In this document: one piece after another, positions 12,285 through 28,699 of the stretch | Position numbering within the stretch: position 1 is the stretch's first letter | Layout of the letters: every line of letters begins with the position of its first letter | Source: a virus | IMG/VR virus record: IMGVR_UViG_3300011442_000007 | Length of the DNA: 40,563 nucleotides | Direction: 5' to 3' (one strand) | Program-made: the position numbers and the translations under genes | The notes under the pieces: model-generated | Seen by the model: only the letters and a program-made list of their open reading frames with translations | Databases searched by the model: none | What the model was told of the DNA's origin: nothing

Positions 12285-13340
12285 TTACGCGCCGACGATG
12301 GGCGCCAGCATGTCGAGGGCTTGGGTCTTCACCTCATGCCCCTTGCCGAACAAAGCGGAATCGAACCGGCTATCAGCGGTGCGCCCCAATTGGTGGTCGA
12401 CGTGTTCGGTAATCGCGTTGAACAAGCCCCACCGGGTGCCCGCGCTTCCGAGGTGATCGGCGCCGCGTGCCTTGCCGTTGAAAAGGTCCAGCACCTTGGG
12501 CACGCTGCGCTGCTCGCGCACGGCGGCATCCGATGCGAGCGGCCGCGTGAGCAGCTGCGCGAATTCGCTTCCGTCAATCGTGCCGCCCATCGTGACCGGT
12601 TCGGCCGGATTGATGCGCGCGGGTTGGCCGAACAGCTGGCGCAGAATGTCGCGCGCTTCGTTCACGTGGCAGGGGGTTTCGGCCATGCGGCGCGCGCGCT
12701 CCATGAACTGGTCGAAGGATTCGCGCGCCACGCCCACGGCCGATTTGGCCGCATCGGCATCGAAGACGGAGCGATGCGATACGCGCACCCGCTTGCCGGC
12801 CGTGTCGGCCAGCGCGAGGCGCAGCGTGTTTGCGCACACCACGCGGATTGCAGTCATGGCCGCTACGGTGGCCAACGATCCGTCAAGGGATGTCGCGAGC
12901 AGCAAATTGCCCCGCACGCGATCCCCGGGGGTCACGTCCCCCTCGGTGTGGTTGCGTGCGAGTGCCCAAATCTTGCGCCCGCCCTTGAGCGATCCGGCCG
13001 TGTGGATCGTCCATTGCCAGCTGTCGGCCATGTCTCGGAAGAACTCAAGCACTTCGGCCGGTTGCACGGTTTTGTACCCGTCACCGACCACGGACAGCGG
13101 AGCGCCCGTGTCGTTGCGATACAGCACTTTCTTTTCCGGGTAGGCCATGGTGCGGCCGCCTTCGCCCATCTGGTACTGCACCGGGGCTTCGATTGCCTGC
13201 CAGTCGAGCCCGGCGGCCGTTTGCCATTCTTCGATGGTGGCCCCCTCGGTCACGCGTTGCCCGAGCCCATGCCATGGGGTGGTGCCCGTGAATGCCATCT
13301 CGGCAAAACCGTTTGCACGTTGGGTGATGTCGTGTGCCAT
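12285..13340 (-). CDS. DUF932-family phage/plasmid-like protein
   Basis: MAHDITQRANGFAEMAFTGTTPWHGLG... is the typical DUF932 N-terminus. GGAG lies 8 nt upstream of the ATG at 13340. The ORF-track maximum start is 13367. Confidence 0.65.
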   Translation of the reverse strand: MAHDITQRANGFAEMAFTGTTPWHGLGQRVTEGATIEEWQTAAGLDWQAIEAPVQYQMGEGGRTMAYPEKKVLYRNDTGAPLSVVGDGYKTVQPAEVLEFFRDMADSWQWTIHTAGSLKGGRKIWALARNHTEGDVTPGDRVRGNLLLATSLDGSLATVAAMTAIRVVCANTLRLALADTAGKRVRVSHRSVFDADAAKSAVGVARESFDQFMERARRMAETPCHVNEARDILRQLFGQPARINPAEPVTMGGTIDGSEFAQLLTRPLASDAAVREQRSVPKVLDLFNGKARGADHLGSAGTRWGLFNAITEHVDHQLGRTADSRFDSALFGKGHEVKTQALDMLAPIVGA

Positions 13341-13422
13341 GTTGCAAGCTCCATAGAGCGCCGGCATCCGGCCGGCATCGGGTGTGCGTCAATCGCACGC
13401 CATAGCCCCACGCGTAGGTCGT

Positions 13423-13932
13423 TCATATCCCCTCCAACACCGGAGCCACAGGCTCCAAAGCGGCGGCGATGCCAGGGGCGCTGAACGTGAGCATTTGGTC
13501 GGCGGTGTATGCTGCCTCCAATTCGTGATCCCGAAACTTGACGCCTCGTTGGCTTCCGAAGGCGTCGATCAGTTCAAGCAATTCCGTCATTTCAGCTATT
13601 GTCATTTGACTTGTCCGATCCCCCAAGACAACGAACCCGGTCCCCTCGATGTTTGGGACGACGCGCTGTTTGCGAAGTGATGCTGTCAACATGGCTTTCC
13701 AGTCATCCGCATCGAGCGTCATCCCGTGCCACGGAACCTGCGCGGCAATATCTCCGAGGCGCCACCAGAGCAAACGGTTCTGCGCGAGTGAACGCGTGTC
13801 GGCACGCACATCGATATGCAGCCGGTGCCCAGCAAGAAGGAACGGCTTTGCAGCGCGCCATATCGAGCCTAGCAGCGTGTGCGCCTGGGTCGGCTCGTAC
13901 AGCACGGAGCGGATGCGCTCGAAGCTCACCAT
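13423..13932 (-). CDS. ninB: NinB-family recombination protein
   Basis: RSLAQNRLLWWRLGDIAAQVPWHGMTLDADDWKAMLTASLRKQRVVPNIEGTGFVVLG...ELLELIDAFGSQRGVKF aligns by eye with lambda NinB (...RSLDQNRKLWACLGDVSRQVEWHGRWLDAESWK...). Confidence 0.8.
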   Translation of the reverse strand: MVSFERIRSVLYEPTQAHTLLGSIWRAAKPFLLAGHRLHIDVRADTRSLAQNRLLWWRLGDIAAQVPWHGMTLDADDWKAMLTASLRKQRVVPNIEGTGFVVLGDRTSQMTIAEMTELLELIDAFGSQRGVKFRDHELEAAYTADQMLTFSAPGIAAALEPVAPVLEGI

Positions 13933-14198
13933 TCATCCTTTGCTCTGAACTCTGCATAAGTCATCGACTCGCCAACAGCGCCGACGCCAGTAAGGATGAA
14001 CGATTCTCGGCTACGACTTACCGTGCGAATGCCTCGTTTCTGCTTGCGGACAGTGAATTCCTCGTAGCTGAACTGCGCCTTGCCGCTGCCGTGGCACCCA
14101 TGGCAGATTACGGCCGTCCCTGGAGGTTCTAAGAATCCGCTATAGAGGCCGGTACCGCGGCAGGATGGGCATTGAATGGTGATTGTCTTAGATGACAC
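13926..14198 (-). CDS. DnaJ-type CxxCxGxG zinc-finger protein (90 aa)
   Basis: CPSCRGTG and CHGCHGSG motifs. Confidence 0.55.
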   Translation of the reverse strand: MSSKTITIQCPSCRGTGLYSGFLEPPGTAVICHGCHGSGKAQFSYEEFTVRKQKRGIRTVSRSRESFILTGVGAVGESMTYAEFRAKDEW

Positions 14199-14361
14199 GG
14201 ATCAACCCCTCTCGCGCTAACTGCCCCCACGTCATGCGGATTGCCTCGTCCAGAGCATGTACGCGCTTGTCCTCCCACCGCTGAAGCTGATGCACGTCGG
14301 GCTGTCTATCTTGAAGGGGTCGGCCATGAAGTTTCCACACGTTATTCCGGAGAGCCATCAT
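14188..14361 (-). CDS. Hypothetical protein (57 aa)
   Basis: ATGA-type coupling with the stop of the upstream gene at 14358. Within ORF 14188..14415. Confidence 0.4.
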   Translation of the reverse strand: MMALRNNVWKLHGRPLQDRQPDVHQLQRWEDKRVHALDEAIRMTWGQLAREGLIRVI

Positions 14362-14978
14362 TTCTTCTCCATTGAACTGATAGCCGAGCGGGTCTTCGAG
14401 TCCAGCAGATACCACAGCGCCTTTTTGAGTTCGGTCGGGTCTTCATCAGGCCAGTTGTCGTAAGCCTCGCTGAATACGGCTTTGACGCCATCGCCGTTCA
14501 TGTGCTTTGTCTGCACCACGATCCTTTGCGAAAGCGCCCGGAGCGAGTCCTGAATCTCGGGCTGGAGATTGGCGAATGAGGCAGTCGTCAAGTCGCTCGC
14601 GGAGGCGCCTATTGAGGTGGTAGCTGGCTCACCTTTGGCCCAGCTGATGGCCCTAGCCACTTCATCGGCGGAAGCGAACTCGGTGCCTCCTAGGCCCAAC
14701 GCAGCCAATGCGCGCCCGATGGCGGAAGTCTCCGCATTCTCAAGCGCCGAGGTCTTGTTGATCTCGGATGCCTTGCGGTATTCCTCGGCGTGTCCGGTAG
14801 CGATGACTCGTCCGGATTCGTCAGCGATGGTCGCCAGCATCACCACGCAATCCAGGTCGCGGTGCAGGATCGTCGTCACCAGTGAATAGCTCGGGAATGC
14901 CTCCCGAAAACCATGCACCCGAAGCGCGACGGTCTGATATTCCTTGCCTCGGATGTTGACGATTCCTGGCTTGTTCAT
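14358..14978 (-). CDS. Putative ssDNA-annealing/recombination protein (ERF/Sak-like; family uncertain)
   Basis: The pattern KEYQTVALRVHGFREAFP...ATIADESGRVIATGHAEE...NKTSALENAETSAIGRALAALGLGG is typical of phage annealing-type proteins. It neighbours ninB. AGGAG lies upstream. Confidence 0.45.
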   Translation of the reverse strand: MNKPGIVNIRGKEYQTVALRVHGFREAFPSYSLVTTILHRDLDCVVMLATIADESGRVIATGHAEEYRKASEINKTSALENAETSAIGRALAALGLGGTEFASADEVARAISWAKGEPATTSIGASASDLTTASFANLQPEIQDSLRALSQRIVVQTKHMNGDGVKAVFSEAYDNWPDEDPTELKKALWYLLDSKTRSAISSMEKK

Positions 14979-15026
14979 TTTCCCATTGCTCCTGAAGCTG
15001 TAGACCGACCGTTTGTTGCCATTGCA

Positions 15027-15182
15027 TCACCGCTGACTCCTAAACCAACGCGCGACTCGCTGCCAAAATGTTGGCTTGGTCGGTATGGTGTGCCAGTACG
15101 CTCGCTCATCCGAGAAAGCCTCAGAGATAGAACGTTTTGTGCGCTGCTTGTGGTGGGCGGTAAGGATGTCATTACTGAACAC
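15027..15182 (-). CDS. Hypothetical small protein (51 aa; frame choice tentative)
   Basis: Two overlapping minus-strand ORFs exist here. This frame has clearly higher third-position G+C by hand count (about 32 of 51) than the alternative 14975..15172 (about 27 of 64). Confidence 0.3.
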   Translation of the reverse strand: MFSNDILTAHHKQRTKRSISEAFSDERAYWHTIPTKPTFWQRVARWFRSQR

Positions 15183-15396
15183 GATTAACCCCCAAGTTAC
15201 GTGCGAAAGGAGTGCCCCTGCGCAGCGAATTCTCAAGCGAGTTGTATTTGACGCCTAGGCGCTCGGCTGCCTCAACCAGCGTCATCCGCTGCCCGTTAAT
15301 GATGACAATCGCGTTGCGTCGCGTATTCCGCGCCTGTTCAGTGAGAGTGGCCCTGCGCACTGTGGGGTGTTTGTCCTCATTGAGCATCAGCCCCAT
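15172..15396 (-). CDS. Small protein, possibly DNA-binding (74 aa)
   Basis: Internal ATG (MGLMLNEDKHP...) of ORF 15172..15576. The segment MTLVEAAERLGVKYNSLENSLRRG is HTH-like. Confidence 0.45.
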   Translation of the reverse strand: MGLMLNEDKHPTVRRATLTEQARNTRRNAIVIINGQRMTLVEAAERLGVKYNSLENSLRRGTPFARNLGVNRVQ

Positions 15397-15536
15397 GACG
15401 GCCCCATGAACTTGTAAGCCACCGCAGCCACCACCATGATGCAGGCGAGCCAGATGGCAACATCCGGCAGGATAGACCGGCGGCGCCTCTTGACCCACGC
15501 ACCGGGGTGCATGTGCCCATGGAAAACGACTCTCAT
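15387..15536 (-). CDS. Small membrane protein (49 aa)
   Basis: ATGA coupling at 15533..15536. TM segment VAIWLACIMVVAAVAY preceded by RRRR. Confidence 0.4.
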   Translation of the reverse strand: MRVVFHGHMHPGAWVKRRRRSILPDVAIWLACIMVVAAVAYKFMGPSWG

Positions 15537-15715
15537 TGCTGCCTCCGAATGTGGTTGATAGCTGCCTGTGCCCCATCCGCGAATGCGAGTTGGCACAGCA
15601 TCGTCAGCAGTTCGTGCACTCGCTCCTGCGACACGTCGTTGTCATCGAGCACCACGACGGCTTGCGCGATCCGCTCTTGAGTGGCGGCAGAGATAGCGAA
15701 CGGAAGGTCGGTCAC
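15533..15715 (-). CDS. Hypothetical protein (60 aa)
   Basis: GTGA coupling with the upstream stop at 15712. Confidence 0.4.
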   Translation of the reverse strand: MTDLPFAISAATQERIAQAVVVLDDNDVSQERVHELLTMLCQLAFADGAQAAINHIRRQQ

Positions 15716-16002
15716 TTCTGCCTCCCAAGGTACCGTGCCTTGAGCGCATCGAGCGCCAGCAGCCGGATGCCCGTGTCCTCGTCCTTCAGCGCCAGGCACA
15801 GCAACTCATCCGGCCGGCAAGGACCGCCTACCCCCTCCGCGAGCCGCCACGCGACGTGTTGGAGAAAGTACGGGTCAACCGTCTCCTGCCCATAGGCTCC
15901 GTCGTTGAGCCAGTTGCAGAAGTCAGCCATGCACAGGAACGGAGATTCCGGGTCCTCGGGGTTATCGTGCGCGGGGTCGCCGCTGTAGGCTAGGACGCTC
16001 AT
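15712..16002 (-). CDS. Hypothetical acidic protein (96 aa)
   Basis: ORF track. Abuts the upstream gene. Confidence 0.5.
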   Translation of the reverse strand: MSVLAYSGDPAHDNPEDPESPFLCMADFCNWLNDGAYGQETVDPYFLQHVAWRLAEGVGGPCRPDELLCLALKDEDTGIRLLALDALKARYLGRQK

Positions 16003-16350
16003 TCAGAACTCCTGTGCACCAAGTGCCTTAGCGATCCGCACGGCGCTTTCGCCATCGGTTGCCCACTGACCCACACGGGTGACCAGATCAACGATCGCCT
16101 CGTCCTCGGTCCTGCCCCAGCCGTGGCGGCCCACATCCTCGTCATCGCCCTCGAACAGCGCGCGCCAGTCATGGTCGCGCACGGGGATCGGGGGGTATTC
16201 GTGGATCGTGACGAGCTTTTGGCCTCGACGCTCGGTCAAATTGCCCATGTAGTCGTCAAAAACACCGTCTCGCTCGTGTGTCATGATTCCCTTTCTGAAC
16301 TGCGCGTCAATGTTGGGGTTGTCTGCGATGGATTGGAGCAGGGGGTTCAT
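16003..16350 (-). CDS. Hypothetical protein (115 aa)
   Basis: ORF track. ATGA coupling with the pentapeptide-repeat gene. Confidence 0.5.
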   Translation of the reverse strand: MNPLLQSIADNPNIDAQFRKGIMTHERDGVFDDYMGNLTERRGQKLVTIHEYPPIPVRDHDWRALFEGDDEDVGRHGWGRTEDEAIVDLVTRVGQWATDGESAVRIAKALGAQEF

Positions 16351-17225
16351 TTCGACGCCGCACGTTCCGCGTCCCGCTTCGCGTGCTCGGCAATTTCGCT
16401 GACGTATTTGCGATCAGTCAGCCACGACAGCACCTCGTCGGTGCCGCGATAGAACATCTTGGCGGCGATGGGAGCGGTCACAACCCCGGCAAGGACCGGC
16501 TCCATATTACGCACCTTCGGATCGGTGGAACAAACTTGCAACCAGCCAGCGAGGCAGTGCGTCGTTTCGCACAGCATTTCCTCGGCGCAGGTGCGGTTCC
16601 TCCATTGCTCATCGACGTGCCAGTGGTCCATTTCGAGCCTGGCCTTGTTGTCGAGAATGATTTCGCGCACGCGGTCGAGGTTCGCGATTGACTGCTCTGT
16701 GGTAGCTGTGCCGGCATCGCTCAGGTTGGCATCGCTCAGGTTGGCATAGCTCAGGTTGGCATCGCTCAGGTTTGCATAGCGCAGGTTGGCATCGCTCAGG
16801 TTGGCATAGCTCAGGTTGGCATAGCGCAGGTTGGCATCGCGCAGGTTGGCACCGCGCAGGTTGGCATCGCTCAGGTTGGCACCGCGCAGGTTTGCATCGC
16901 TCAGGTTGGCACCGCGCAGGTTTGCATAGTGCAGGTCGGCATCGCGCAGGTTTGCATCGCTCAGGTTGGCACCGCGCAGGTTTGCATAGTGCAGGTCGGC
17001 ATCGCGCAGGTTTGCATCGCTCAGGTTGGCATCGCGCAGGTTGGCATCGCGCAGGTTGGCACCGCGCAGGTTGGCATCGCTCAGGTTGGCATAGCTCAGG
17101 TTGGCACGTTTCGCTGTCGCTTGCTGCAGCGCATAACGAGTCCGTAGACCGCTCGCAACATCATTCGGCACGGCGCACTCAAACAGCACGGCGCCAGTGA
17201 ATCGGTGTTTGATCTGGTGAAGCAT
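16347..17225 (-). CDS. Pentapeptide-repeat protein (26 consecutive A[N/D]L[S/R/H]x units) with a Cys/Trp-containing C-terminal domain
   Basis: Translation ANLSYANLSDANLRGANLRDANLRD... GGAGA RBS 5 nt upstream of the ATG. The N-terminal IKHRFTGAVLFE cap is typical of this class. Confidence 0.85.
   Translation of the reverse strand: MLHQIKHRFTGAVLFECAVPNDVASGLRTRYALQQATAKRANLSYANLSDANLRGANLRDANLRDANLSDANLRDADLHYANLRGANLSDANLRDADLHYANLRGANLSDANLRGANLSDANLRGANLRDANLRYANLSYANLSDANLRYANLSDANLSYANLSDANLSDAGTATTEQSIANLDRVREIILDNKARLEMDHWHVDEQWRNRTCAEEMLCETTHCLAGWLQVCSTDPKVRNMEPVLAGVVTAPIAAKMFYRGTDEVLSWLTDRKYVSEIAEHAKRDAERAASK
16716..17105. repeat. 15-bp-period tandem array (26 units) encoding the pentapeptide repeats; contains a 60-bp unit duplicated at 59/60 identity (16921..16980 and 16981..17040)
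   Basis: Read directly: reiteration of ggcatcgctcaggtt and its variants. The sequence lines at 16921 and 16981 differ at one base. Confidence 0.9.
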
Positions 17226-17337
17226 TCGTTCTCCCTGTAGTTGCCGGTTACCTAATCCGGCTCTGACCTATCGCGTCAGAGGCTTACAGCGCCGAACTTC
17301 GCTATCGGTGCGCCCGTGCATCCTGCGGGGGAAGGGT

Positions 17338-17496
17338 TCAGGCGTAAGGATTGAATACCTCGCCAGCACCGTTGTCGCCCTTCGGGAACGGCCAGGCGGC
17401 AGCAGGGCTGAGCTTGGTGCCGTCACCGTTGGCCTTGGCCGCCGGCTTGCCCTCGCTGATCAGGTCGCGCTTCTCGACCTCGGGCGGCCGAAACAT
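17338..17496 (-). CDS. Unlisted small ORF (52 aa: MFRPPEVEKRDLISEGKPAAKANGDGTKLSPAAAWPFPKGDNGAGEVFNPYA)
   Basis: Hand translation. About 42 of 51 codons end in G or C, which is a strong coding signal. It overlaps the last 37 nt of the upstream repeat-protein ORF. No clear SD. Confidence 0.45.
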   Translation of the reverse strand: MFRPPEVEKRDLISEGKPAAKANGDGTKLSPAAAWPFPKGDNGAGEVFNPYA

Positions 17497-18497
17497 GACA
17501 GTCGATCTCGCGGCTCTTGAGCTTGGCCATCTTGCCGAAGGCCGATTCGCTCCGCGGCTTCGTCGAGCCGCTCGTTGATCATGCGCAGGTACAGCTCGTG
17601 CAGTTCTGCCTGCACCGCGTCGCGGTGCTGTATGAACACCGCGTCGGCCTTGGCGCGCGCTTCTTCGTAGGTGGCGCAGCCTTTCGCTGCCTCGTAAGCG
17701 GCGGCCGCGCCAGCGGCCGCCGAGGCGTCCCAGGCGTCCCAGGCGTCCCAGGCGGCCCAGGCGGCCCTGGCGTCCCTGGCGGCCCTGGCGTCCCTGGCGG
17801 CCCTGGCGTCCCTGGCGTCCCAGGCGTCCCAGGCGTCCCAGGCGGCCCTGGCGTCCCTGGGGTCCCAGGCGTCCCTGGCGTCCCTGGCGTCCCAGGCGGC
17901 CCAGGCGTCCCTGGCGGCCCTGGCGTCCCAGGCGTCCCAGGCGGCCCTGGCGTCCCAGGCGGCCCTGGCGTCCCTGGCGGCCCAGGCGTCCCTGGCGGCC
18001 CAGGCGGCGCTGGCGGCCCAGGCGGCGCTGGCGGCGCTGGCGGCGCCTAACGCCTTGTCAAGTGCGGCTGTGCGCTCGGCTTCGCCGAGCTCCGCCGTGA
18101 TCGGGGCCAGCGCACGCAGCTTCGCCGCGTGCTCGGCAAGCTCTGGCACGAGCTCGAGCCACATCGGGGCGTGGACGCGCCACAACCAGTCGAGCGCCAT
18201 GAATGCGCGCTTGAGCTGCAGTTCAGGCCCTTGGTAGGTGCCGACGAGCAGCGGTATGTAGCGCTTGAGCTGTTGCCGCTCATCGTCGGGCAGGCGGTCG
18301 TTCCAGCTGCGGCCGAAGGCGGCGAGCACGGGGTCGACGCATTGCGGCTCGTCGCTGAATTTCTCGCCGGCCAGCATGCTCACGACCTCGAGCAGGCAGT
18401 GGCCCTGCTTGGCGCTCTTGTGCTGGCCTTCGTCAAGGTGCAGCGCGGCGATCTGTTCCTCGGTGAGGCCAGCGGCGCGCGCTTCAGCTGTTGTCAT
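17460..18497 (-). CDS. First gene of the leftward operon: globular N-terminal domain plus a 36-unit [W/R/S]-[D/A]-A tripeptide-repeat region
   Basis: ORF track. GGAG lies 6 nt upstream of the ATG. Non-repetitive N-terminus (…GHCLLEVVSMLAGEKFSDEPQCVDPVLAAFGRSWNDRLP…). Repeat region AAWDARDARAAWDAWDAWDARDARAARDA. The 3' end is uncertain. Confidence 0.7.
   Translation of the reverse strand: MTTAEARAAGLTEEQIAALHLDEGQHKSAKQGHCLLEVVSMLAGEKFSDEPQCVDPVLAAFGRSWNDRLPDDERQQLKRYIPLLVGTYQGPELQLKRAFMALDWLWRVHAPMWLELVPELAEHAAKLRALAPITAELGEAERTAALDKALGAASAASAAWAASAAWAARDAWAARDARAAWDARAAWDAWDARAARDAWAAWDARDARDAWDPRDARAAWDAWDAWDARDARAARDARAARDARAAWAAWDAWDAWDASAAAGAAAAYEAAKGCATYEEARAKADAVFIQHRDAVQAELHELYLRMINERLDEAAERIGLRQDGQAQEPRDRLSCFGRPRSRSAT
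17724..18047. repeat. Tandem array of 36 x 9 bp, consensus GGCG[T/G]CCC[A/T]
   Basis: Counted unit by unit. Variation is almost confined to positions 5 and 9 of the unit. The last five units are GGCGGCG[C/T] variants. Confidence 0.95.
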
Positions 18498-18605
18498 GTT
18501 GTGCTCCGGGTTGCGTGTTGCGATGTAGAGACTGTGCGCCGATTGGCACGATGCGTCAAGCGCTTTCTACAAAGACCACATGCGTTAGTGTGCCATTAGT
18601 CACGC

Positions 18606-18633
18606 TTGACAAGCGAGCGCCATTCGGCATACT
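18606..18633 (+). promoter_or_regulatory. Sigma70-like promoter candidate: TTGACA, 16-nt spacer, CATACT, with the ATG of the HTH gene 7 nt after the -10 (leaderless or near-leaderless)
   Basis: Perfect -35 hexamer at 18606..18611. The -10 matches 4 of 6 at 18628..18633. No SD before the ATG at 18641. Confidence 0.45.
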
Positions 18634-18640
18634 TAGCGGA

Positions 18641-18820
18641 ATGATGACCTACAAGCAACTTCAGAAAGCGGTGCGCGACTTGCCGAATATCAGCGAGTTC
18701 TGCGCCAAGCACAAGCTACCGCTGCGCACTGTAATGCGTGTCAAGGCTGGAGGGTTCCCGAGGGCGGGAACGATGCTGCAGCTAGAGGCCGCTCTGAGTT
18801 CTGAAGCAGCCAAGCAATGA
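18641..18820 (+). CDS. Small HTH protein (59 aa), Cro-like early regulator candidate
   Basis: MMTYKQLQKAVRDLPNISEFCAKHKLPLRTVMRVKAGG has a helix-turn-helix pattern. It is the first gene of the rightward operon, divergent from the leftward operon. Confidence 0.55.
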   Translation: MMTYKQLQKAVRDLPNISEFCAKHKLPLRTVMRVKAGGFPRAGTMLQLEAALSSEAAKQ

Positions 18821-19296
18821 ACGCCCTGCACACTCTCATCCTAAAGCTCGCCGGCAAGCCCAGCGGAACGAACTGCCGCGAACTCATGAAACACACCGAG
18901 ATGAGCACTCAATGCGCCTCGGATGCGTTGACTTGGCGAGTGGAGCGATACGGATTGATCCTCGTCAAAGGCAAAGCTACAGAAGCGGGCCATGTCAGTC
19001 ATCAATACTTCACGCGCGCAGATCAAGCAAAGACGTGGGAAGCGATGCCACCGAGCATCAGGCCAAACGTGGCGATCAGGCAGGCGAACCCGAAACGATC
19101 AAAGCCTCTGAAGCCGATTCAATCAGCGACATGGGCTAGGGCCCCGATGGGGAATCCTCACGAGAAGCGGCCTGTAGCGGTTCCTGTGCATGGAATAGCT
19201 TTAGGGTACGACGAACGCTACCAATTGGGGCCGGATGAGGCCAAGGCGTTTCGGGGTGTGTTTGGTTCGTTGCCAATTGGGAAGTATCCAGAATGA
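18817..19296 (+). CDS. Hypothetical protein with an N-terminal winged-helix-like region (159 aa)
   Basis: ORF track. ATGA coupling. Confidence 0.55.
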   Translation: MNALHTLILKLAGKPSGTNCRELMKHTEMSTQCASDALTWRVERYGLILVKGKATEAGHVSHQYFTRADQAKTWEAMPPSIRPNVAIRQANPKRSKPLKPIQSATWARAPMGNPHEKRPVAVPVHGIALGYDERYQLGPDEAKAFRGVFGSLPIGKYPE

Positions 19297-20672
19297 CATA
19301 CGATTCATTCGTCGCCCGCAAGTTGTCGATTGTCTCGCCGAGCGGCCTGCAGGGATTGGTGCAGATGCCGGATTCCATGTTCCCGCATCAGGCCGCGCTC
19401 ACTCGCTGGGCACTCAAGCGTGGGCGTGCCGCGATCTTCGCTGATACCGGGCTCGGTAAGACCCGCATCGAACTTGTCTGGGGTCGCGCAGTAGCGAAGC
19501 ACACGCAGAGGCCGGTGCTGATCCTGGCGCCGCTCGCGGTGGCGGCGCAGACTGCTCTAGAGGGCGAGCGCATCGGTATCCCGGTGACGGTGTGTCGTGA
19601 CGGTGCAGACGTTCGGCCAGGCGTCAACATCACGAACTACGATCGCCTGCATCGATTCGACTGCTCGGTGTTCGGCGGCATCGCTCCCGATGAATCGTCG
19701 ATCATCAAGCACCACGATGCCAAGACGTTCGCCACCCTGACGCGGGAATTCAGGGATACCCCGTTCAAACTCCCATGCACCGCCACGCCGGCACCGAACG
19801 ACTGGACCGAGCTAGGCACGCACGCCGAGTTTCTTGGCATCTGCACGCGCCAGGAAATGCTCGCCGAGTACTTCACCCACGACGGGGGTGACACGAGCGT
19901 CTGGCGGCTTAAGGGCCATGCGCGTGACGTGTTCTGGCGCTGGGTCTGTTCGTGGGGTGCCCTGATTCGTCGGCCGTCTGACCTAGGATTCGATGACACG
20001 GCATACGCGCTGCCGCCACTGCTGCTGCACGAGCACCTGGTCGAATCAGAGACAAGCACGAACGGCATGCTCTTTGCGATGGAGGCGCAGACCTTGAGTG
20101 AGCGCCGTGATGCGCGCCACTCATCGCTCGAGGAACGGGTGGCCGAATGCTCGCGTATCGTCAATGCCGAAGCCGAGCCATGGGTTGTCTGGTGCGACCT
20201 CAACGCAGAAGGCGATGCGCTGACCAAAGCCATCAAAGGTGCGGTGCAGATTGCCGGCGCCGACGACACTGACACCAAAGAGGAACGCCTGCAGGCATTC
20301 GCAGCCGGCAAGTTCCGGGTGTTGGTCAGTAAGCCGTCGATCTGCGGGTGGGGTCTGAACTGGCAGCACTCTGCGCGCATGGCGTTCGTTGGTGTCACGG
20401 ACTCATACGAAGCCTACTACCAAGCGGTGCGCAGGTGCTGGCGCTTCGGTCAAAAGCGGCCTGTGCATGTGCATATCTTCGCCAGCAAGACCGAGGGGGC
20501 AGTGGTTGCGAACCTCAAGCGTAAAGAGCGCGACGCGCAGCAGATGGCCGAGAGTCTGAGCGCTGAAACGCACGATGCTGTGATGGCAGAAGTCACCGGA
20601 CTGACTCGGCAAACCAATCCGTACAACCCGGCGCAACCCATTGCCGTTCCGTCATTCCTGAGGGTCGCATGA
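19293..20672 (+). CDS. SNF2/DEAD-like superfamily 2 helicase
   Basis: Motif I ADTGLGKT, motif II PDESS, motif VI-like QAVRRCWRFGQ. ATGA coupling. Confidence 0.8.
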   Translation: MTYDSFVARKLSIVSPSGLQGLVQMPDSMFPHQAALTRWALKRGRAAIFADTGLGKTRIELVWGRAVAKHTQRPVLILAPLAVAAQTALEGERIGIPVTVCRDGADVRPGVNITNYDRLHRFDCSVFGGIAPDESSIIKHHDAKTFATLTREFRDTPFKLPCTATPAPNDWTELGTHAEFLGICTRQEMLAEYFTHDGGDTSVWRLKGHARDVFWRWVCSWGALIRRPSDLGFDDTAYALPPLLLHEHLVESETSTNGMLFAMEAQTLSERRDARHSSLEERVAECSRIVNAEAEPWVVWCDLNAEGDALTKAIKGAVQIAGADDTDTKEERLQAFAAGKFRVLVSKPSICGWGLNWQHSARMAFVGVTDSYEAYYQAVRRCWRFGQKRPVHVHIFASKTEGAVVANLKRKERDAQQMAESLSAETHDAVMAEVTGLTRQTNPYNPAQPIAVPSFLRVA

Positions 20673-21706: not shown

Positions 21707-22471
21707 TTGGTGTACGCCAAACTATTCACGAGCATCTACCAAGGCACGCTGCGCGGTAACTCGCATGGCTTGCTGGTCTTCACGAACCTGCTGGCGCACG
21801 CTGATTCTGCTGGCGTGGTTGATATCCACCCAAAGGCCATAGCCGACGAGGTTGGCTTACCTGAGGATGCAGTTAGGACCGCTTTGACGATGCTCGAGTC
21901 GCCAGACGCAGAGTCGCGCACACCAGAACTTGACGGGCGCAGGATTGTGCGGACAGACGAGCATCGAGCTTGGGGCTGGCGTATCGTGAATCACGCCAAG
22001 TACAGAGCAATCCGCAACGAGGAAGACCGCAGGGAACAGAACCGGCTATCGCAGCAGCGTTGGCGTGAGAAGAATAAGCAAAGTAAGCCGCCGTCAGCCG
22101 CCGTCAGCCGCGAGTGTGCAGAATCAGCCCATACAGAAGCAGAAGCAGAAGCAGAAGCAGAAGCAGAAGCAAGAAAGAAAGAAAGCGGATCGGCGCAAGC
22201 GCCGCGTCCGCCCGCCGCCTTCACTGGTGACAACATCGAAGACATAAAGCCAAGAGCCATAGTCCTCCTTGCCGATACTTGGGAGCTGCCGGAGCGGTGG
22301 GGATTCGATGCTGAAGCATTGGGGTGGAAGCCGGCCGACGTCCTTCAGCAGGCCGAGAAATTCCGTCAGTATTGGACTCGTGGCAAGGGAGCCGGAACCA
22401 GGCGCAGCGTTAAGGGATGGTCGCAATCTTGGTCGAATTGGCTGTCAAAGGCAGCGGAGATGAAGAGATGA
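21707..22471 (+). CDS. Putative replication initiation/organiser protein (winged-helix N-terminus, EA-repeat linker, Trp-rich C-terminus)
   Basis: AKLFTSIYQGTLRG...LLVFTNLLAHADSAGVVDIHPKAIADEVGLPEDAVRTAL resembles phage replisome-organiser N-domains. TTG/GTG start at 21707/21710. Confidence 0.5.
   Translation: MVYAKLFTSIYQGTLRGNSHGLLVFTNLLAHADSAGVVDIHPKAIADEVGLPEDAVRTALTMLESPDAESRTPELDGRRIVRTDEHRAWGWRIVNHAKYRAIRNEEDRREQNRLSQQRWREKNKQSKPPSAAVSRECAESAHTEAEAEAEAEAEARKKESGSAQAPRPPAAFTGDNIEDIKPRAIVLLADTWELPERWGFDAEALGWKPADVLQQAEKFRQYWTRGKGAGTRRSVKGWSQSWSNWLSKAAEMKR
22134..22185. repeat. (CAGAAG)x6 microsatellite followed by (AAAG)n, a C-plus-purine tract inside the replication gene
   Basis: Read directly. 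Encodes EAEAEAEAEAEARKKE. Preceded by a 10-bp direct repeat, agccgccgtc x2.6, at 22086..22112. Confidence 0.9.
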
Positions 22472-22815
22472 GTCAATACAAGAAAGTGCGCAAGGAACTG
22501 TCCGAAAGGATGGGCGAGCAGGACCATGCGCGTGATGACCTTGGCAGACGACTTTACTGCTCTGCGAACGGCTGTCCGATGAAGGCATCTGTGTTCATGG
22601 AAGGATCGAACGAGTTGTGCAGCTGGCATGCTGCGGCGCCATTTGTCCGATGGCCAGTTGTGACGCAGGAATTGAATGAGTGCATAGCCTCCGGTGGGAA
22701 TCCAGTAAGGCCGGAAATACGACCGGCGCCGTGGGTGCTGGAGGCCAGAAAGCGCGTCAAGGCTGTGGGTACAGCGATGCCGCAATCGGTGGTTTCGACC
22801 AAGGAGCAGGCATGA
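22468..22815 (+). CDS. Hypothetical protein (115 aa) with a Cys/His cluster
   Basis: ATGA coupling. YCSANGCPMKASVFMEGSNELCSWH suggests a zinc-binding motif. Confidence 0.5.
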   Translation: MSQYKKVRKELSERMGEQDHARDDLGRRLYCSANGCPMKASVFMEGSNELCSWHAAAPFVRWPVVTQELNECIASGGNPVRPEIRPAPWVLEARKRVKAVGTAMPQSVVSTKEQA

Positions 22816-26283: not shown

Positions 26284-26481
26284 ATGAGCGCAGCCCTCTT
26301 CGCCAAGATGCACGAGCAGAACCTGCGAATCCTCTCGCTTGAACGCCAGGTGGAAGAATTGGCAAGACAAGTGAACGCACACTTGCTAGAATCTCTCAAC
26401 GCTGAACGCGCCGTCTCCATTCCGAGACGTGGAAGACCGCGTAAGGTTGTGGGGGATCATGGACATTCTGGCGGCAATTGA
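26284..26481 (+). CDS. Hypothetical small coiled-coil protein (65 aa)
   Basis: ORF track. Lies between terL and the portal gene. Confidence 0.45.
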   Translation: MSAALFAKMHEQNLRILSLERQVEELARQVNAHLLESLNAERAVSIPRRGRPRKVVGDHGHSGGN

Positions 26482-28699
26482 GTACCAGGAAGACCTAGCT
26501 TCTAGTCGGGGCGACCTCGACACCGAGCGATCCGAAGCCCTCGACCGATATCTCGGCCGTCCCTACGGGGATGAGCAGCAAGGCCGCTCTCAGGTCGTGA
26601 TGCGCGATGTGTCCGACACCATCGAGTGGATCAAGCCCTCCCTGCTAAAGATCTTCGCCTCAGGCGATGAGGTAGTCCGCTTCGACCCTACGGGGCCGGA
26701 GGACGAGGAGCAGGCCCAGCAGGAAACGGACTACGTCAACTACGTGGTGAACCAGAAGAATAACGGGTTCATCATCTTCCACGACTGGTTCCACGACGCC
26801 CTGCTCCAGAAAACAGGCTATGTCCTGGTTCAATACCTCACCGAGAAGCAGCAAAGCCGGGAGACGTACAAAGGTCTTACGGAAGACGAGATGGCCCTAC
26901 TGGCTAAGGACGGAGTGGAAATCCTCCAGCACTCAGCCTACCCCATCACATCGGGAGGAATCGGGCCCCAAGGGGAGCAAATCCCCCCGGTGATGCTGCA
27001 TGACATCGTCGCCCAGCAGACGAAAGAGTACGGATGTGAGAAGCTGTTCAACATCCCCCCCGAGCAGGTTCTAGTCGCTCATGACTGGCCCAATGTTGAC
27101 TTCGAGGATTGCCCGTTCCTGGAAATCATCGACTACCCGACCATCTCTGCTCTGAGGCAGAACGGGTATGAAGTCGAGGACGATATCTCTGACGATTCGT
27201 CCGACATCAACGAGATGGATACCCGGATTCGTCGCTCCGTGGAGGGTGACGACCTGTTCGAGCCTGGGGATGATGGAGGTTCTGATCCATCGATGCGCCG
27301 TGTCAAGTGTCGGTATGCATGGATGATGATCGATGTAGACGAGGATGGGATCGCGGAGCTTAGAAAGTTTGTCATCGTCGGGTCCACGATCCTCAACGGG
27401 GATGAGGGCGAAGAGACAGACCTGATTCCCGTAGCGGCGATCACCCCGATTCGACAGCCACATGAACACTACGGCCTGAGCCTGGATGACGTTGTCCAAG
27501 ACCTTCAGCGGATCAGGACCGTCCTGGTTCGAGGATTCCTGGACAACATGTACGTCACCAACAACAGCCGGCACGCTGTTAATGCAAACCTCGTAAACCT
27601 GGATGACCTTCTGGTCACTCGTCCTAACGGCGTGGTCCGTGTCAACGGCGACCCGAATCAGGCAATCGCACCAATCATCACGCAACCGAACGGTCCCGCG
27701 ATTCTCTCTGCGGTCGAGTACATCGACTCCATCCGGGAATCCAGAACTGGTGTCACTCGGTACAACCAGGGTCTAGATGCCAACTCGCTGAACAAGACAG
27801 CGACCGGGATCACACAGATCATGACCGCTGCGCAGCAGCGCATCGAGATGATCGCCCGCATCTTCGCAGAGACAGGGGTCAAGTCCCTGATGCTCATTGT
27901 TCATGCGATGGCGATCAGGAACGGCTCATCTCAGGAGAAGATGAAGCTGCGGAACAAGTGGGTTCCGGTCAATCCTCAGGAGTGGAAGACCCGGAAGAAT
28001 CTCACCGTCGCTGTTGGTCTAGGCACAGGTAACAAAGATCAGATGCTCCAGCACCTGATGATGATCCTGACCGCTCAGAAGGAAGCGCTCCCTCTAGGAC
28101 TGACAGGACCGAAGGAAATCTACAACGCCCTCGCCAGGCTCACTCAGAACGCCGGATTCAAGCAAACCGAGGAGTTCTGGAAAGACCCCGGGGACAATGC
28201 TCAATTGCCTGCTCCTCCAAACCCTGAAGCGATCAAAGCTCAAGCAGAGGCTCAAAAGACCCAAGCCCAACTCCAAGCCGACCAGCAAAAGACGCAGGCG
28301 CAACTCCAGGCGGATGCGCAGAAGTTCCAAGCCCAAGCGGCGATTGACCAGGAGCGGATGGCGTTTGAAGCGTCGGAGAAGGAGAAGGACCGACAGTTGC
28401 AACTCCAGATCGTTCGCGAGCAAGAGGCGACAAAGCTCGCCATCGAGAACGCGAAACTGGAGCATCAATCGAACACGATGGCCCAGTCTCAATCCTTCGA
28501 GGCAGAGAAGCTAGGGGCTACATTTGCCAGGGAAGACGCCAAAGAGGCCCAGGTTCAGGAAAAGACCCAGGAGAAGGACGACGGCATGTCGGAACTCCTA
28601 AAAGGTGTTCAAGACGCCCTCGGGATGCTGGCAAAAGAGATGGGACGCCCGAAGAAGCTAATTCGGGGGCCGGACGGCAAAGCGATTGGTGTTCAATGA
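26459..28699 (+). CDS. Portal protein (746 aa from the ATG at 26459)
   Basis: Size, position after terL, the N-terminal motif RYLGRPYGDEQQGRSQVVMRDVSDTIEWIKPSLLKIF, and a C-terminal Q/A-rich coiled coil. Confidence 0.85.
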   Translation: MDILAAIEYQEDLASSRGDLDTERSEALDRYLGRPYGDEQQGRSQVVMRDVSDTIEWIKPSLLKIFASGDEVVRFDPTGPEDEEQAQQETDYVNYVVNQKNNGFIIFHDWFHDALLQKTGYVLVQYLTEKQQSRETYKGLTEDEMALLAKDGVEILQHSAYPITSGGIGPQGEQIPPVMLHDIVAQQTKEYGCEKLFNIPPEQVLVAHDWPNVDFEDCPFLEIIDYPTISALRQNGYEVEDDISDDSSDINEMDTRIRRSVEGDDLFEPGDDGGSDPSMRRVKCRYAWMMIDVDEDGIAELRKFVIVGSTILNGDEGEETDLIPVAAITPIRQPHEHYGLSLDDVVQDLQRIRTVLVRGFLDNMYVTNNSRHAVNANLVNLDDLLVTRPNGVVRVNGDPNQAIAPIITQPNGPAILSAVEYIDSIRESRTGVTRYNQGLDANSLNKTATGITQIMTAAQQRIEMIARIFAETGVKSLMLIVHAMAIRNGSSQEKMKLRNKWVPVNPQEWKTRKNLTVAVGLGTGNKDQMLQHLMMILTAQKEALPLGLTGPKEIYNALARLTQNAGFKQTEEFWKDPGDNAQLPAPPNPEAIKAQAEAQKTQAQLQADQQKTQAQLQADAQKFQAQAAIDQERMAFEASEKEKDRQLQLQIVREQEATKLAIENAKLEHQSNTMAQSQSFEAEKLGATFAREDAKEAQVQEKTQEKDDGMSELLKGVQDALGMLAKEMGRPKKLIRGPDGKAIGVQ

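Follow-up and report, generated by a model that had tools for sequence, protein, structure and literature searches.

What does a phage do with a gene that encodes an uninterrupted run of 26 pentapeptides? To our knowledge, pentapeptide-repeat genes are common in phages and routinely annotated, and none has a known role; our search of the literature found no functional study of a phage protein of the type described here. The gene lies in a 40,563-nucleotide stretch of viral DNA (the window; IMG/VR record IMGVR_UViG_3300011442_000007). The initial annotation, made from the sequence alone, proposed that its array had grown by duplication of exactly one β-helix coil (60 bp) and that the protein may act as a DNA mimic against host gyrase, restriction enzymes, or other DNA-targeting defense proteins. 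At issue are which part of the protein is conserved, how the array changes in length, and whether DNA mimicry fits.

A pentapeptide-repeat gene in a leftward gene block of a podovirus-like phage

The phage origin of the window was confirmed by its genes, which encode terminase, portal, scaffold, major head, ejection, and tailspike-like proteins, endolysin, NinB, a helicase, and a methyltransferase. The source is a podovirus-like soil phage of ~40.5 kb, probably a phage of Comamonadaceae. The gene for the 292-aa protein (Table 1) is the second of a leftward block (18497 to 13423) that ends with NinB and diverges from the genes for the helicase, the methyltransferase, and the primosome. This gene order suggests that it is an early, non-structural accessory gene that is expressed early in infection. 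Its stop codon overlaps the start of the next gene (ATGA at 16347..16350), and the plus-strand open reading frames that cross the array (e.g., 16772..17200) are by-products of the repeat. The identical 292-aa product is called on six JGI contigs, and the array lies within the source contig rather than at a contig end.

A scan for promoters and terminators across 13000..19500 returned site counts no higher than in shuffled sequence. Comparison of 28 loci of relatives revealed no conserved neighbor gene; the other loci examined were small-ORF-rich regions on mobile elements or phages. Two neighboring early genes in the window carry in-frame arrays of 9-bp and 6-bp units.

Table 1. Features of the pentapeptide-repeat gene and its surroundings, in window coordinates
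Feature	Position	Strand	Basis or remark
Pentapeptide-repeat protein gene with conserved C-terminal domain	16347..17225	-	Complete, 292 aa + stop; ORF list, Pfam PF00805
N-terminal cap, residues 1-40 (MLHQIKHRFTGAVLFEC...)	17106..17225	-	Predicted β-hairpin and helix
26 uninterrupted pentapeptides A[N/D]LxX, residues 41-170, ~6.5 coils	16716..17105	-	Translation, Tandem Repeats Finder, AF2, Foldseek
Linker and all-α C-terminal domain, residues 171-292 (122 aa)	16350..16715	-	Homologues, AF2
Core motif, residues 202-228	16542..16622	-	W202 H203 C213 C219 T221 H223 C224 G227 W228
Perfectly periodic 60-bp stretch, 149 nt, 2.5 copies	16883..17031	.	89-nt exact run at lag 60
AGGGAG, Shine-Dalgarno-like	17231..17236	-	5 nt 5′ of the ATG; candidate site, read from the sequence

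The array is predicted to fold as a β-helix

Translation bore out the initial description of 26 uninterrupted A[N/D]LxX units between a cap and a C-terminal region. All units are in register (26 × A[N/D]L[S/R/H][D/G/Y]) and comprise 9 distinct 15-mers, and Tandem Repeats Finder reports a period of 15 with 26.3 copies and 86% matches. The match to Pfam PF00805 is strong (E=4.5e-56; 186.3 bits versus a gathering cut-off of 20.2). Structure prediction, which the initial annotation had proposed as a check, gave the expected pentapeptide-repeat fold: the full-length AF2 model (pLDDT 85) has a β-bridge at each fifth residue of the array, and the top matches of this model in a Foldseek search of the PDB were all pentapeptide-repeat structures. 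These predictions point to a right-handed quadrilateral β-helix with four repeats per coil. Together with the phage genes in the window, they uphold the assignment of this gene as one for a phage pentapeptide-repeat protein. In the model, the N-terminal cap consists of strands at residues 2-6 and 13-18 and a helix at 25-38 (pLDDT 88-96), and this cap is kept in relatives.

The C-terminal Cys/His domain is the conserved part of the protein

The C-terminal region, which contains CAEEMLCETTHCLAGWLQVC, is predicted to be all-helical with high confidence (pLDDT 91.8). Its core follows the pattern W-H...C-x-[T/S]-x-H-C-x-[A/G]-G-W, and the columns of this motif are invariant in each of three alignments (A1, A2, and A3). 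In a distant superfamily, the H, C, H, C, and G remain invariant, while both Trp and the Ala occur in at least 90% of sequences. Searches with the domain yielded 210 homologues with E≤1e-3, and the family comprises 269 clusters at 50% identity, almost all in phage or mobile contexts.

We examined what these domains are joined to. Of 150 representative clusters, pentapeptide arrays accompany the domain in 51, (CxxC)n arrays in 6, and other periodic repeats, some of them C-terminal to the domain, in 15; another 37 consist of the domain alone or of fragments. The non-pentapeptide arrays weakly match YdcK β-solenoid and bactofilin models, below the Pfam cut-offs. Full-length stand-alone proteins of 63-132 aa (e.g., P0152, P0156, P0237, P0261, and P0264) show that the domain is independent of pentapeptide repeats. 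The C-terminal domain, and not the β-helix, is the conserved part of the protein.

Foldseek searches with the domain found no fold match in the PDB (best E=2.3) or in BFVD (best E=0.48), and PDB sequence profile searches returned matches to the repeats only, or none. No Pfam or NCBIfam model matches the domain, no PADLOC-DB defense-system model matches at E≤0.01, and the source annotations of its homologues read only "hypothetical protein." When the domain alone was used as a tblastn query, nothing was found in 50,697 phage records or in a plasmid collection. There is, however, a match to phrog_889 (E=8.5e-4); PHROGs 889, 30739, and 31265 are all labeled "unknown function." With every core residue (W202, H203, C219, T221, H223, C224, G227, and W228) present in a predicted all-α domain, the 292-aa protein belongs to an unnamed WH...CxTxHC.AGW helical domain family (PHROG 889/30739/31265), whose members share this core in a domain of ~100 aa.

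A proposed model in which a helical effector is carried on a variable stalk

A model that accommodates these data is that the protein consists of three modules: a small cap, a right-handed quadrilateral pentapeptide β-helix, and a 120-aa all-helical domain. The helical domain would be the functional constant, acting on a host or phage target early in infection. It would probably be a compact metal-binding module (2 His and 2 Cys) or else contain a Cys/His active site, as the four invariant residues suggest metal binding or catalysis. The β-helix may act as a rigid stalk, or as a steric arm, whose length varies and which can be exchanged for other solenoid-type arrays. We give this explanation as a whole about even chances.

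Alternatively, the C-terminal domain could be a capping or dimerization module, with the arrays doing the work. In a scenario of this kind that we consider fairly unlikely, the array itself is functional, either as a surface that binds or decoys a host sensor or as a polymerizing or steric element, its length is under diversifying selection, and the helical domain is only a folding cap or oligomerization module. Consistent with this scenario, array length and sequence flavor diverge fast while the frame is kept, and most proteins with the C-terminal domain carry some array. Since bacterial NLR-like defense proteins have been proposed to use repeat superstructures, including pentapeptide repeats, as sensors (doi 10.1101/2022.07.19.500537), repeat surfaces may indeed be used for recognition in this arms race. 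However, the full-length stand-alone proteins manage with no array, the arrays that do occur are of unrelated chemistries and lie on either side of the domain, and invariant His and Cys would be unusual in a mere cap. We favor the reading in which the helical domain is the effector and the β-helix its stalk.

DNA mimicry fits the array poorly

The initial annotation had pointed to Qnr and MfpA as precedents. By this account, which we regard as very unlikely, the β-helix mimics B-DNA, as in Qnr, MfpA, and AlbG, and titrates host gyrase, restriction enzymes, or other DNA-binding defense proteins, while the C-terminal domain merely caps or dimerizes it. The fold class is indeed that of MfpA, Qnr, and AlbG (Foldseek E 1e-4 to 1e-6), and the array is mildly acidic, with 16 Asp versus 12 Arg (net -4 over 130 residues, or -0.15 per repeat; pI 4.9). 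A pentapeptide coil rises by 4.8 Å and B-DNA by 3.4 Å per bp, values from which we derived a charge of about -0.7 per repeat for B-DNA of equal length; two relatives (L010 and L014), at -0.54 to -0.62, come near this figure. The presumed early accessory position is also typical of anti-restriction genes such as Ocr and Ral.

Other features of the protein argue against mimicry. Scores against the NCBIfam equivalog models are far below their cut-offs for both Qnr (NF033086, 53.4 bits versus 240) and MfpA (NF000349, 59.8 versus 360), as they are for the QnrA (61 versus 450) and QnrB (46 versus 460) models. In Qnr, the helix is broken by loops A and B and followed by a C-terminal dimerization helix (PMC10886550). 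The array described here is uninterrupted and thus lacks Qnr-type loop insertions, and a globular multi-helix domain of ~120 aa stands in place of the dimerization helix. Moreover, 12 of the 130 array residues are Arg, and the nearest structural matches are cyanobacterial repeat proteins of the consensus type rather than Qnr or MfpA. The topoisomerase protectors Qnr, MfpA, AlbG, and McbG, which share the fold class, are sometimes found on mobile elements, whereas the context here is a phage early operon. DNA mimics such as MfpA, Qnr, Ocr, and ArdA are expected to present a dense anionic surface, conserved and matched to the phosphates of DNA; judged from sequence, the array here is weakly acidic, and its charge is not maintained among relatives, where it ranges from 0 (L022) to -0.62 per repeat. 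Finally, because the same C-terminal domain occurs with Cys-rich or other arrays, or with none, we argue that conserved function does not reside in the pentapeptide surface. The proposal of a DNA mimic, directed at gyrase or otherwise, is therefore weakened.

A one-coil indel is one of several length changes

We confirmed that the two 60-bp blocks singled out in the initial annotation, 16921..16980 and 16981..17040, are identical at 59/60 positions. The sole mismatch (16972 versus 17032) is a Gly/Asp difference between unit 9 and unit 5. As first delimited (16921..17040), the blocks are slightly out of register with the perfectly periodic stretch given in Table 1; the duplicated one-coil block is ANLSD-ANLRD-ADLHY-ANLRG. 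The only two ADLHY units of the array lie exactly 60 bp apart. When the order of the 26 units was shuffled (n=5000), an exact run of at least 89 nt at any lag arose in 8 shuffles (longest run: mean 48 nt, 99th percentile 74).

In a sister assembly of this phage, the allele (P0266, 272 aa) is the window gene with exactly 60 nt missing, and these 60 nt fall inside the periodic stretch. For L041, which differs from the window gene by a 60-nt loss, the homology at the junction is 89 nt long. Since the sister-assembly allele lacks exactly the 60-bp block, our data support a real one-coil (60-bp, 4-repeat) indel, and this part of the proposed expansion holds.

Growth by whole coils as a rule does not. 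Repeat number in relatives, a comparison that the initial annotation had called for, ranges from 2 to at least 41, with cap and C-terminal domain kept throughout, and shows no modulo-4 preference. In 24 arrays, the longest internal exact duplications span 29-100 nt at lags of 15-180 bp; the lag is a multiple of 60 in 9/24 (P=0.12 versus a 1-in-4 expectation). Since repeat numbers lack a modulo-4 preference and lags range so widely, one coil is one among several slippage or recombination registers and no special unit. Each relative's repeats have their own homogenized sequence flavor. In the first 120 homologues, 26 repeats appeared to be twice the family maximum, but that sample is biased toward short contigs, and we discarded the idea: longer viral contigs contain complete genes with 10-34 repeats and two truncated genes with at least 37 and at least 41.

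Sister assemblies are 100% identical over ~20 kb and differ only in three tandem arrays, and the gene itself is found with 26, 22, 12, 7, or 3 repeats. Every shorter allele is the window gene with an exact shortcut between the longest direct repeats at its lag (89, 58, 43, and 40 nt of homology at the junctions), and the 3- and 7-repeat alleles occur in MEGAHIT (k141) assemblies only. In addition, many IMG/VR contigs end within the array of this gene, and the source record ends within the neighboring 9-bp array. Outside the tandem arrays, sister contigs do not differ by any SNP, so that SNP haplotypes have no power to separate alleles from collapse. The only haplotype signal is a single synonymous difference carried by the JGI copy of the 22-repeat allele.

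These features are those expected if the 60-bp duplication and the length alleles were artifacts of short-read de Bruijn assembly, and assembler collapse could account for the shorter alleles (12, 7, and 3 repeats), as it may for much of the length variation within the phage. That assembly artifacts account for the duplication as well as the alleles is highly improbable, however, since collapse shortens arrays and does not create them; the 75-nt ADLHY-to-ADLHY span, which is unique to the duplicated form and lies within read and k-mer length, is present on six JGI contigs; the 22-repeat allele occurs in both JGI and ENA assemblies, one copy with its synonymous difference; and the cultured phages L and ST64T differ in orf232, where one pentapeptide repeat (15 bp) has been lost (doi 10.1101/2020.10.05.325894).

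The array probably changes in length when replication slips, or when recombination is unequal, between its near-identical 15-bp units, whatever the register, and the 60-bp duplication would be the latest such event in this lineage. A bolder version, which strikes us as quite unlikely, is that the helical domain is a new phage effector (e.g., a metal-dependent inhibitor or enzyme for host takeover or counter-defense) presented on interchangeable β-solenoid stalks (pentapeptide, (CxxC)n, bactofilin-like, and others). High-frequency variation in stalk length within a clonal phage population would then make the gene behave like a contingency locus, adjusting reach or escaping recognition, and the neighboring genes with 9-bp and 6-bp arrays would behave alike.

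Significance and comparison with known systems

Qnr-like DNA mimicry, the usual guess for phage pentapeptide-repeat genes, fits the 292-aa protein poorly. The part worth studying is the conserved Cys/His C-terminal domain; the β-helix has the look of a stalk that can be swapped and whose length is unstable. Should genomes that are otherwise identical really differ in array length, they would offer a simple case in which phage early genes vary in the manner of contingency loci. Should the differences stem from assembly, they caution against reading metagenomic repeat counts, and contig breaks at genes of this kind, as biology.

The array most resembles cyanobacterial-type repeat proteins (Np275/Np276, Alr5209, Rfr23, HetL, along with synthetic "beta1" solenoids based on these proteins), which share the near-consensus A(D/N)LxX repeat and an uninterrupted β-helix. 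These were the best Foldseek matches (E 5e-11 to 2e-5, 42-53% identity), and Np275/276 superposes with an rmsd of 1.6 Å over 117 columns. The NCBIfam Alr5209 model (NF052603), which has 113 positions and is repeat-only, scores 130 bits versus a cut-off of 125, with a match confined to the repeats (residues 61-137). In contrast to the phage protein, the cyanobacterial proteins are cellular, repeat-only, and mostly of unknown function, and they lack the cap and the 120-aa WH/CxTxHC domain.

An array followed by a small C-terminal domain also occurs in other phage proteins: P22-like ST64T/L orf232, ST104 orf19, and epsilon34 gp42, Caulobacter phage GB2A gp015, and the Rheinheimera Barba phages. 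ST104 orf19 lies in the early-left operon directly after ral, and array lengths differ between Barba14S and Barba4S. However, these proteins have another cap (..ILxxHxxWL..) and an unrelated C-terminal domain (..GCQxH....W..). Full-length tblastn (residues 37-287) had suggested the P22-like orf19/orf232, GB2A gp015, and Barba proteins as orthologues; by cap and C-terminal domain they are analogues only.

Among phage proteins with a version of the C-terminal domain, Ralstonia phage PQ43W gp58 has a similar cap, ~27 pentapeptide repeats, and a distant form of the domain. It and PHROGs 889, 30739, and 31265 share the core ..WH..CGTTHC.AG.. with the 292-aa protein but are only distantly related to it, and phrog_889 matches the domain alone.

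For the arrangement as a whole, the type III effectors NleL, SopA, and PipB2 offer a parallel, in which an N-terminal pentapeptide β-helix serves as a scaffold before a functional C-terminal domain. NleL, whose pentapeptide helix precedes a catalytic domain, is matched by Foldseek (E 6e-7), while NCBIfam PipB/PipB2 matches to the repeats are far below cut-offs. These, however, are secreted bacterial effectors, and their C-terminal domains (HECT-like E3 ligase or kinesin-binding) are unrelated to the helical domain of the phage protein.

Results

Translation of the ORF bore out the gene, the 26-repeat array and the layout of cap plus C-terminal domain that the initial annotation had described. 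The A[N/D]L[S/R/H][D/G/Y] pentapeptides are uninterrupted, Tandem Repeats Finder reports period 15, 26.3 copies and 86% matches, and the protein matches PF00805 (Pfam) at E=4.5e-56. An AGGGAG site lies 5 nt 5′ of the ATG, and the stop codon overlaps the ATG of the next gene. Long plus-strand ORFs across the array are a side effect of the repetition.

Coordinates of the features discussed (window positions unless a relative's locus is named)
Feature	Position	Strand	Remarks
Pentapeptide-repeat (window) gene	16347..17225	-	292 aa
N-terminal cap			residues 1-40
26-repeat array	16716..17105		residues 41-170
Linker and C-terminal domain			residues 171-292; contains CAEEMLCETTHCLAGWLQVC
ATGA stop/start overlap	16347..16350
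Duplicated blocks	16921..16980, 16981..17040
Perfect 60-bp periodicity	16883..17031		149 nt
Leftward block of small ORFs	18497 to 13423
DUF932 (phrog_1221) gene	12285..13367	-
Slr1353_N (PF27148) gene	14358..14978	-
Upstream neighbour	17460..18497	-	345 aa
9-bp array	17724..18042		~35 copies, (A-[W/R]-D)n
Junction of record ends	17938/17939		in 9-bp array
Primosomal-like ORF	21707..22471	+
6-bp array	22134..22171		in-frame (CAGAAG)6.3
Portal gene	26429..28699	+
33-bp tandem repeat	28253..28336		in portal gene; 2.5 copies, 72% matches
Truncated second copy, locus L005	4378..4572	+	2-3 repeats, stop
Second family, L001	3950..4594		ST104 orf19
Second family, L008	2989..3684
Second family, L054	529..1116

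An AF2 model of the full-length protein (pLDDT 85) predicts a beta-hairpin plus helix for the cap, a regular solenoid with one beta-bridge per five residues for the array, and an all-helical C-terminal domain (C-domain). Its PDB matches are pentapeptide-repeat proteins without exception. Modelled by itself, the C-domain gave a confident prediction (pLDDT 91.8) for which neither PDB (best E=2.3) nor BFVD offered a similar fold, and its sequence matched nothing in PDB with the threshold relaxed to E<=10.

The window is a complete phage genome of ~40.5 kb, a rotated form of JGI contig 3300011443 Ga0137457_1000031 (40,563 bp; window position 1 is record position 22626). The junction of the record ends falls in the neighbouring gene's 9-bp array; the pentapeptide array lies inside the record. 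Structural and lysis genes encode a terminase, an SU10-type portal, a scaffold, a major head protein, an ejection protein, a tailspike-like protein and an endolysin. The early region encodes NinB and DUF932 on the minus strand and a helicase, an N6/N4 methyltransferase and a primosomal-like protein on the plus strand. The window gene is second in the leftward block, which also holds, beside NinB, the DUF932 and Slr1353_N genes, both of uncharacterised accessory families. Several MEGAHIT assemblies in ENA (ERZ272676xx-ERZ272677xx) contain near-identical contigs of 37.8-40.3 kb. Genomic copies of close relatives are found in Polaromonas, Variovorax and Ramlibacter, and 50,697 phage records contained no DNA-level relatives except via the repeat itself.

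Two 60-bp blocks in the array are 59/60 identical, as previously stated. The block register was slightly off; the exact match at lag 60 is a run of 89 nt. The array's only two ADLHY units are spaced 60 bp. When the order of the 26 units was shuffled 5000 times and exact runs of >=89 nt at any lag were scored, 8 shuffles reached this length. Thus, the duplication exceeds what low unit diversity would yield.

The 90%-identity cluster of the protein comprises six members that share an identical cap and C-domain, including a 165-aa member that is the 3-repeat form with a truncated gene call. Contigs carrying these alleles match the window at 100% identity across ~20 kb, with differences confined to three tandem arrays, the 15-bp array of the window gene and the 9-bp and 6-bp arrays. 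Each shorter allele can be derived exactly from the window gene by deleting a single block bounded by the longest direct repeats at the corresponding lag. Since the 22-repeat allele differs from the window allele only in lacking the duplicated coil (four repeats, 60 bp), comparison of repeat number in related phages, a check suggested in the initial annotation, supports a recent one-coil indel.

Alleles of the window gene in sister assemblies of the same phage
Repeats	Length (aa)	Found in	Lost (nt)	Junction homology (nt)
26	292	6 JGI contigs
22	272	JGI and ENA	60	89
12	222	JGI and ENA	210	58
7	197	ENA only	285	43
3	177	ENA only, 5 contigs	345	40

That the length variation is an assembly artefact remains a rival explanation. 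Loss of a block between longest direct repeats is what collapse of a de Bruijn graph would give, and the 3- and 7-repeat alleles are confined to MEGAHIT assemblies. However, the 26-repeat form cannot come from collapse, because it contains a unique stretch of 75 nt reaching from the first ADLHY unit to the second. A synonymous difference is present in one of the 22-repeat copies. We regard the duplication as real and the 22-repeat allele as probably real; the 12-, 7- and 3-repeat alleles may be real variants or assembly collapses. The cultured phages L and ST64T provide a precedent for real instability of such arrays: they are >99.9% identical, yet orf232 differs by a 15-bp loss, one pentapeptide repeat (doi 10.1101/2020.10.05.325894).

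The upstream neighbour's (A-[W/R]-D)n protein has no Pfam or NCBIfam match. As the record ends join inside its array, the copy number there depends on circularisation; across sister assemblies the products are 279, 282, 312 and 345 aa. Two larger arrays aside, a 6-bp indel in the primosomal-like gene is the sole difference between the window and several sister contigs. Apart from three in-frame tandem arrays in early genes, these genomes thus show no detectable variation.

Among relatives, a first sample of short contigs gave 2 to 13 repeats. Longer viral contigs contained complete genes with 10-34 repeats, and genes cut at contig ends had at least 37 and at least 41. Many viral contigs, those at IMG/VR loci L016, L017, L018, L021, L022, L026/L040, L028 and L034, start or end within the array, L026 and L040 being two ends of one contig (UViG_3300033552_000030), both within the gene. 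Assemblies often break in this array, and short contigs underestimate the number of repeats. Repeat flavour is homogenised per protein (ANLxx in the window, A[DV]LT[GD] in L014, ANLA[GNR] in L022), indicating rapid turnover.

Of the proposed one-coil expansion, the 60-nt indel relative to the 22-repeat allele is supported, but whole-coil growth as a rule is not. No residue modulo 4 was preferred among the repeat numbers of relatives (chi-square P=0.45 and 0.66). Across 24 arrays, the longest exact duplications within an array had lags of 15, 30, 45, 60, 75, 90, 120, 135 and 180 bp; the lag was a multiple of 60 in 9 of these arrays, not significantly above one in four (P=0.12). This spread makes one-coil size one register among several rather than a structural rule.

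Searching with the C-domain alone recovered 210 proteins at E<=1e-3, and a profile search found 269 clusters at 50% identity. Invariant in the close family are M, W-H, W, C, E-E, C, T, H, C, A-G-W and C; the distant superfamily retains the core W-H ... C-x-[T/S]-x-H-C-x-[A/G]-G-W. We tallied architectures over 150 representative clusters: 51 had pentapeptide arrays, six (CxxC)n arrays, 15 other periodic arrays (GxISxGL, A.IGGDL, VSGNAxV, NGGRAVV, GQTGGKVW), some C-terminal to the C-domain, and 33 non-repetitive extensions, while 37 were the C-domain alone or fragments, full-length proteins of 63-132 aa included. Thus, the C-domain is not tied to pentapeptide repeats. The non-pentapeptide arrays match YdcK beta-solenoid and bactofilin models weakly, under Pfam cut-offs. 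Long (CxxC)n arrays (such as CTGCTGCTGCTGC, preceded by a conserved N-terminus, 'KTAKGNIGVSYIS') are fused to the C-domain in relatives P0126, P0139, P0141, P0145, P0164 and P0228 and at L025, L030 and L035; this Cys-rich repeat architecture has no Pfam or NCBIfam match. At L005, directly 3′ of a 327-aa family member, a truncated second copy with the same cap looks like a remnant of tandem gene duplication. The C-domain is an uncharacterised family already present in PHROGs 889, 30739 and 31265, each labelled 'unknown function'. No annotation source gave an informative name for any member, and no conserved neighbour gene was found across 28 loci.

Discussion

The initial observation was correct and its expansion inference partly supported, but its functional interpretation is unsupported. 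In the reading we favour, the window protein would be an accessory protein that acts early. The WH/CxTxHC helical domain would be its constant and probably functional part, and a rigid beta-solenoid whose length is unstable would carry this domain. Invariance of two His and two Cys in the domain points to a possible Cys/His active centre or small metal site. The alternative that the array is a functional or decoy surface, with the C-domain as its cap, remains.

Mimicry of DNA by the pentapeptide surface, proposed earlier as acting against host gyrase, restriction or other DNA-targeting defence proteins, is a further rival but unlikely as a core function, given the charge density and the interchangeable arrays. 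The array has 16 Asp and 12 Arg (net -4, or -0.15 per repeat) and relatives range from 0 to -0.62, compared with ~-0.7 per repeat for B-DNA of equal length (computed with a rise of 4.8 A per coil and 3.4 A per bp); the density of charge is thus neither high here nor conserved.

Phage pentapeptide-repeat proteins are already known and annotated as such. To our knowledge, one conserved domain fused to exchangeable solenoid arrays is undescribed, and literature searches found nothing. The window protein is not a Qnr or MfpA member, falling outside these gyrase-protecting families: it scored 53 bits against Qnr (cut-off 240) and 60 against MfpA (cut-off 360), with every Qnr subfamily far under its cut-off. 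Its helix lacks loop insertions and is followed by a globular domain instead of a dimerisation helix. The best PDB matches of the full-length model are the consensus-type Np275/276 (rmsd 1.6 A) and synthetic beta1 solenoids, whereas MfpA, Qnr and AlbG rank much lower. A second, unrelated phage pentapeptide-repeat family, from P22-like, Caulobacter and Rheinheimera phages, differs in having an 'ILxxHxxWL' cap and a C-terminal '..GCQxH....W..' domain. Its member ST104 orf19 lies directly after the anti-restriction gene ral. The family's array is longer in Barba4S, where it is broken by a frameshift and an ambiguous base, than in Barba14S.
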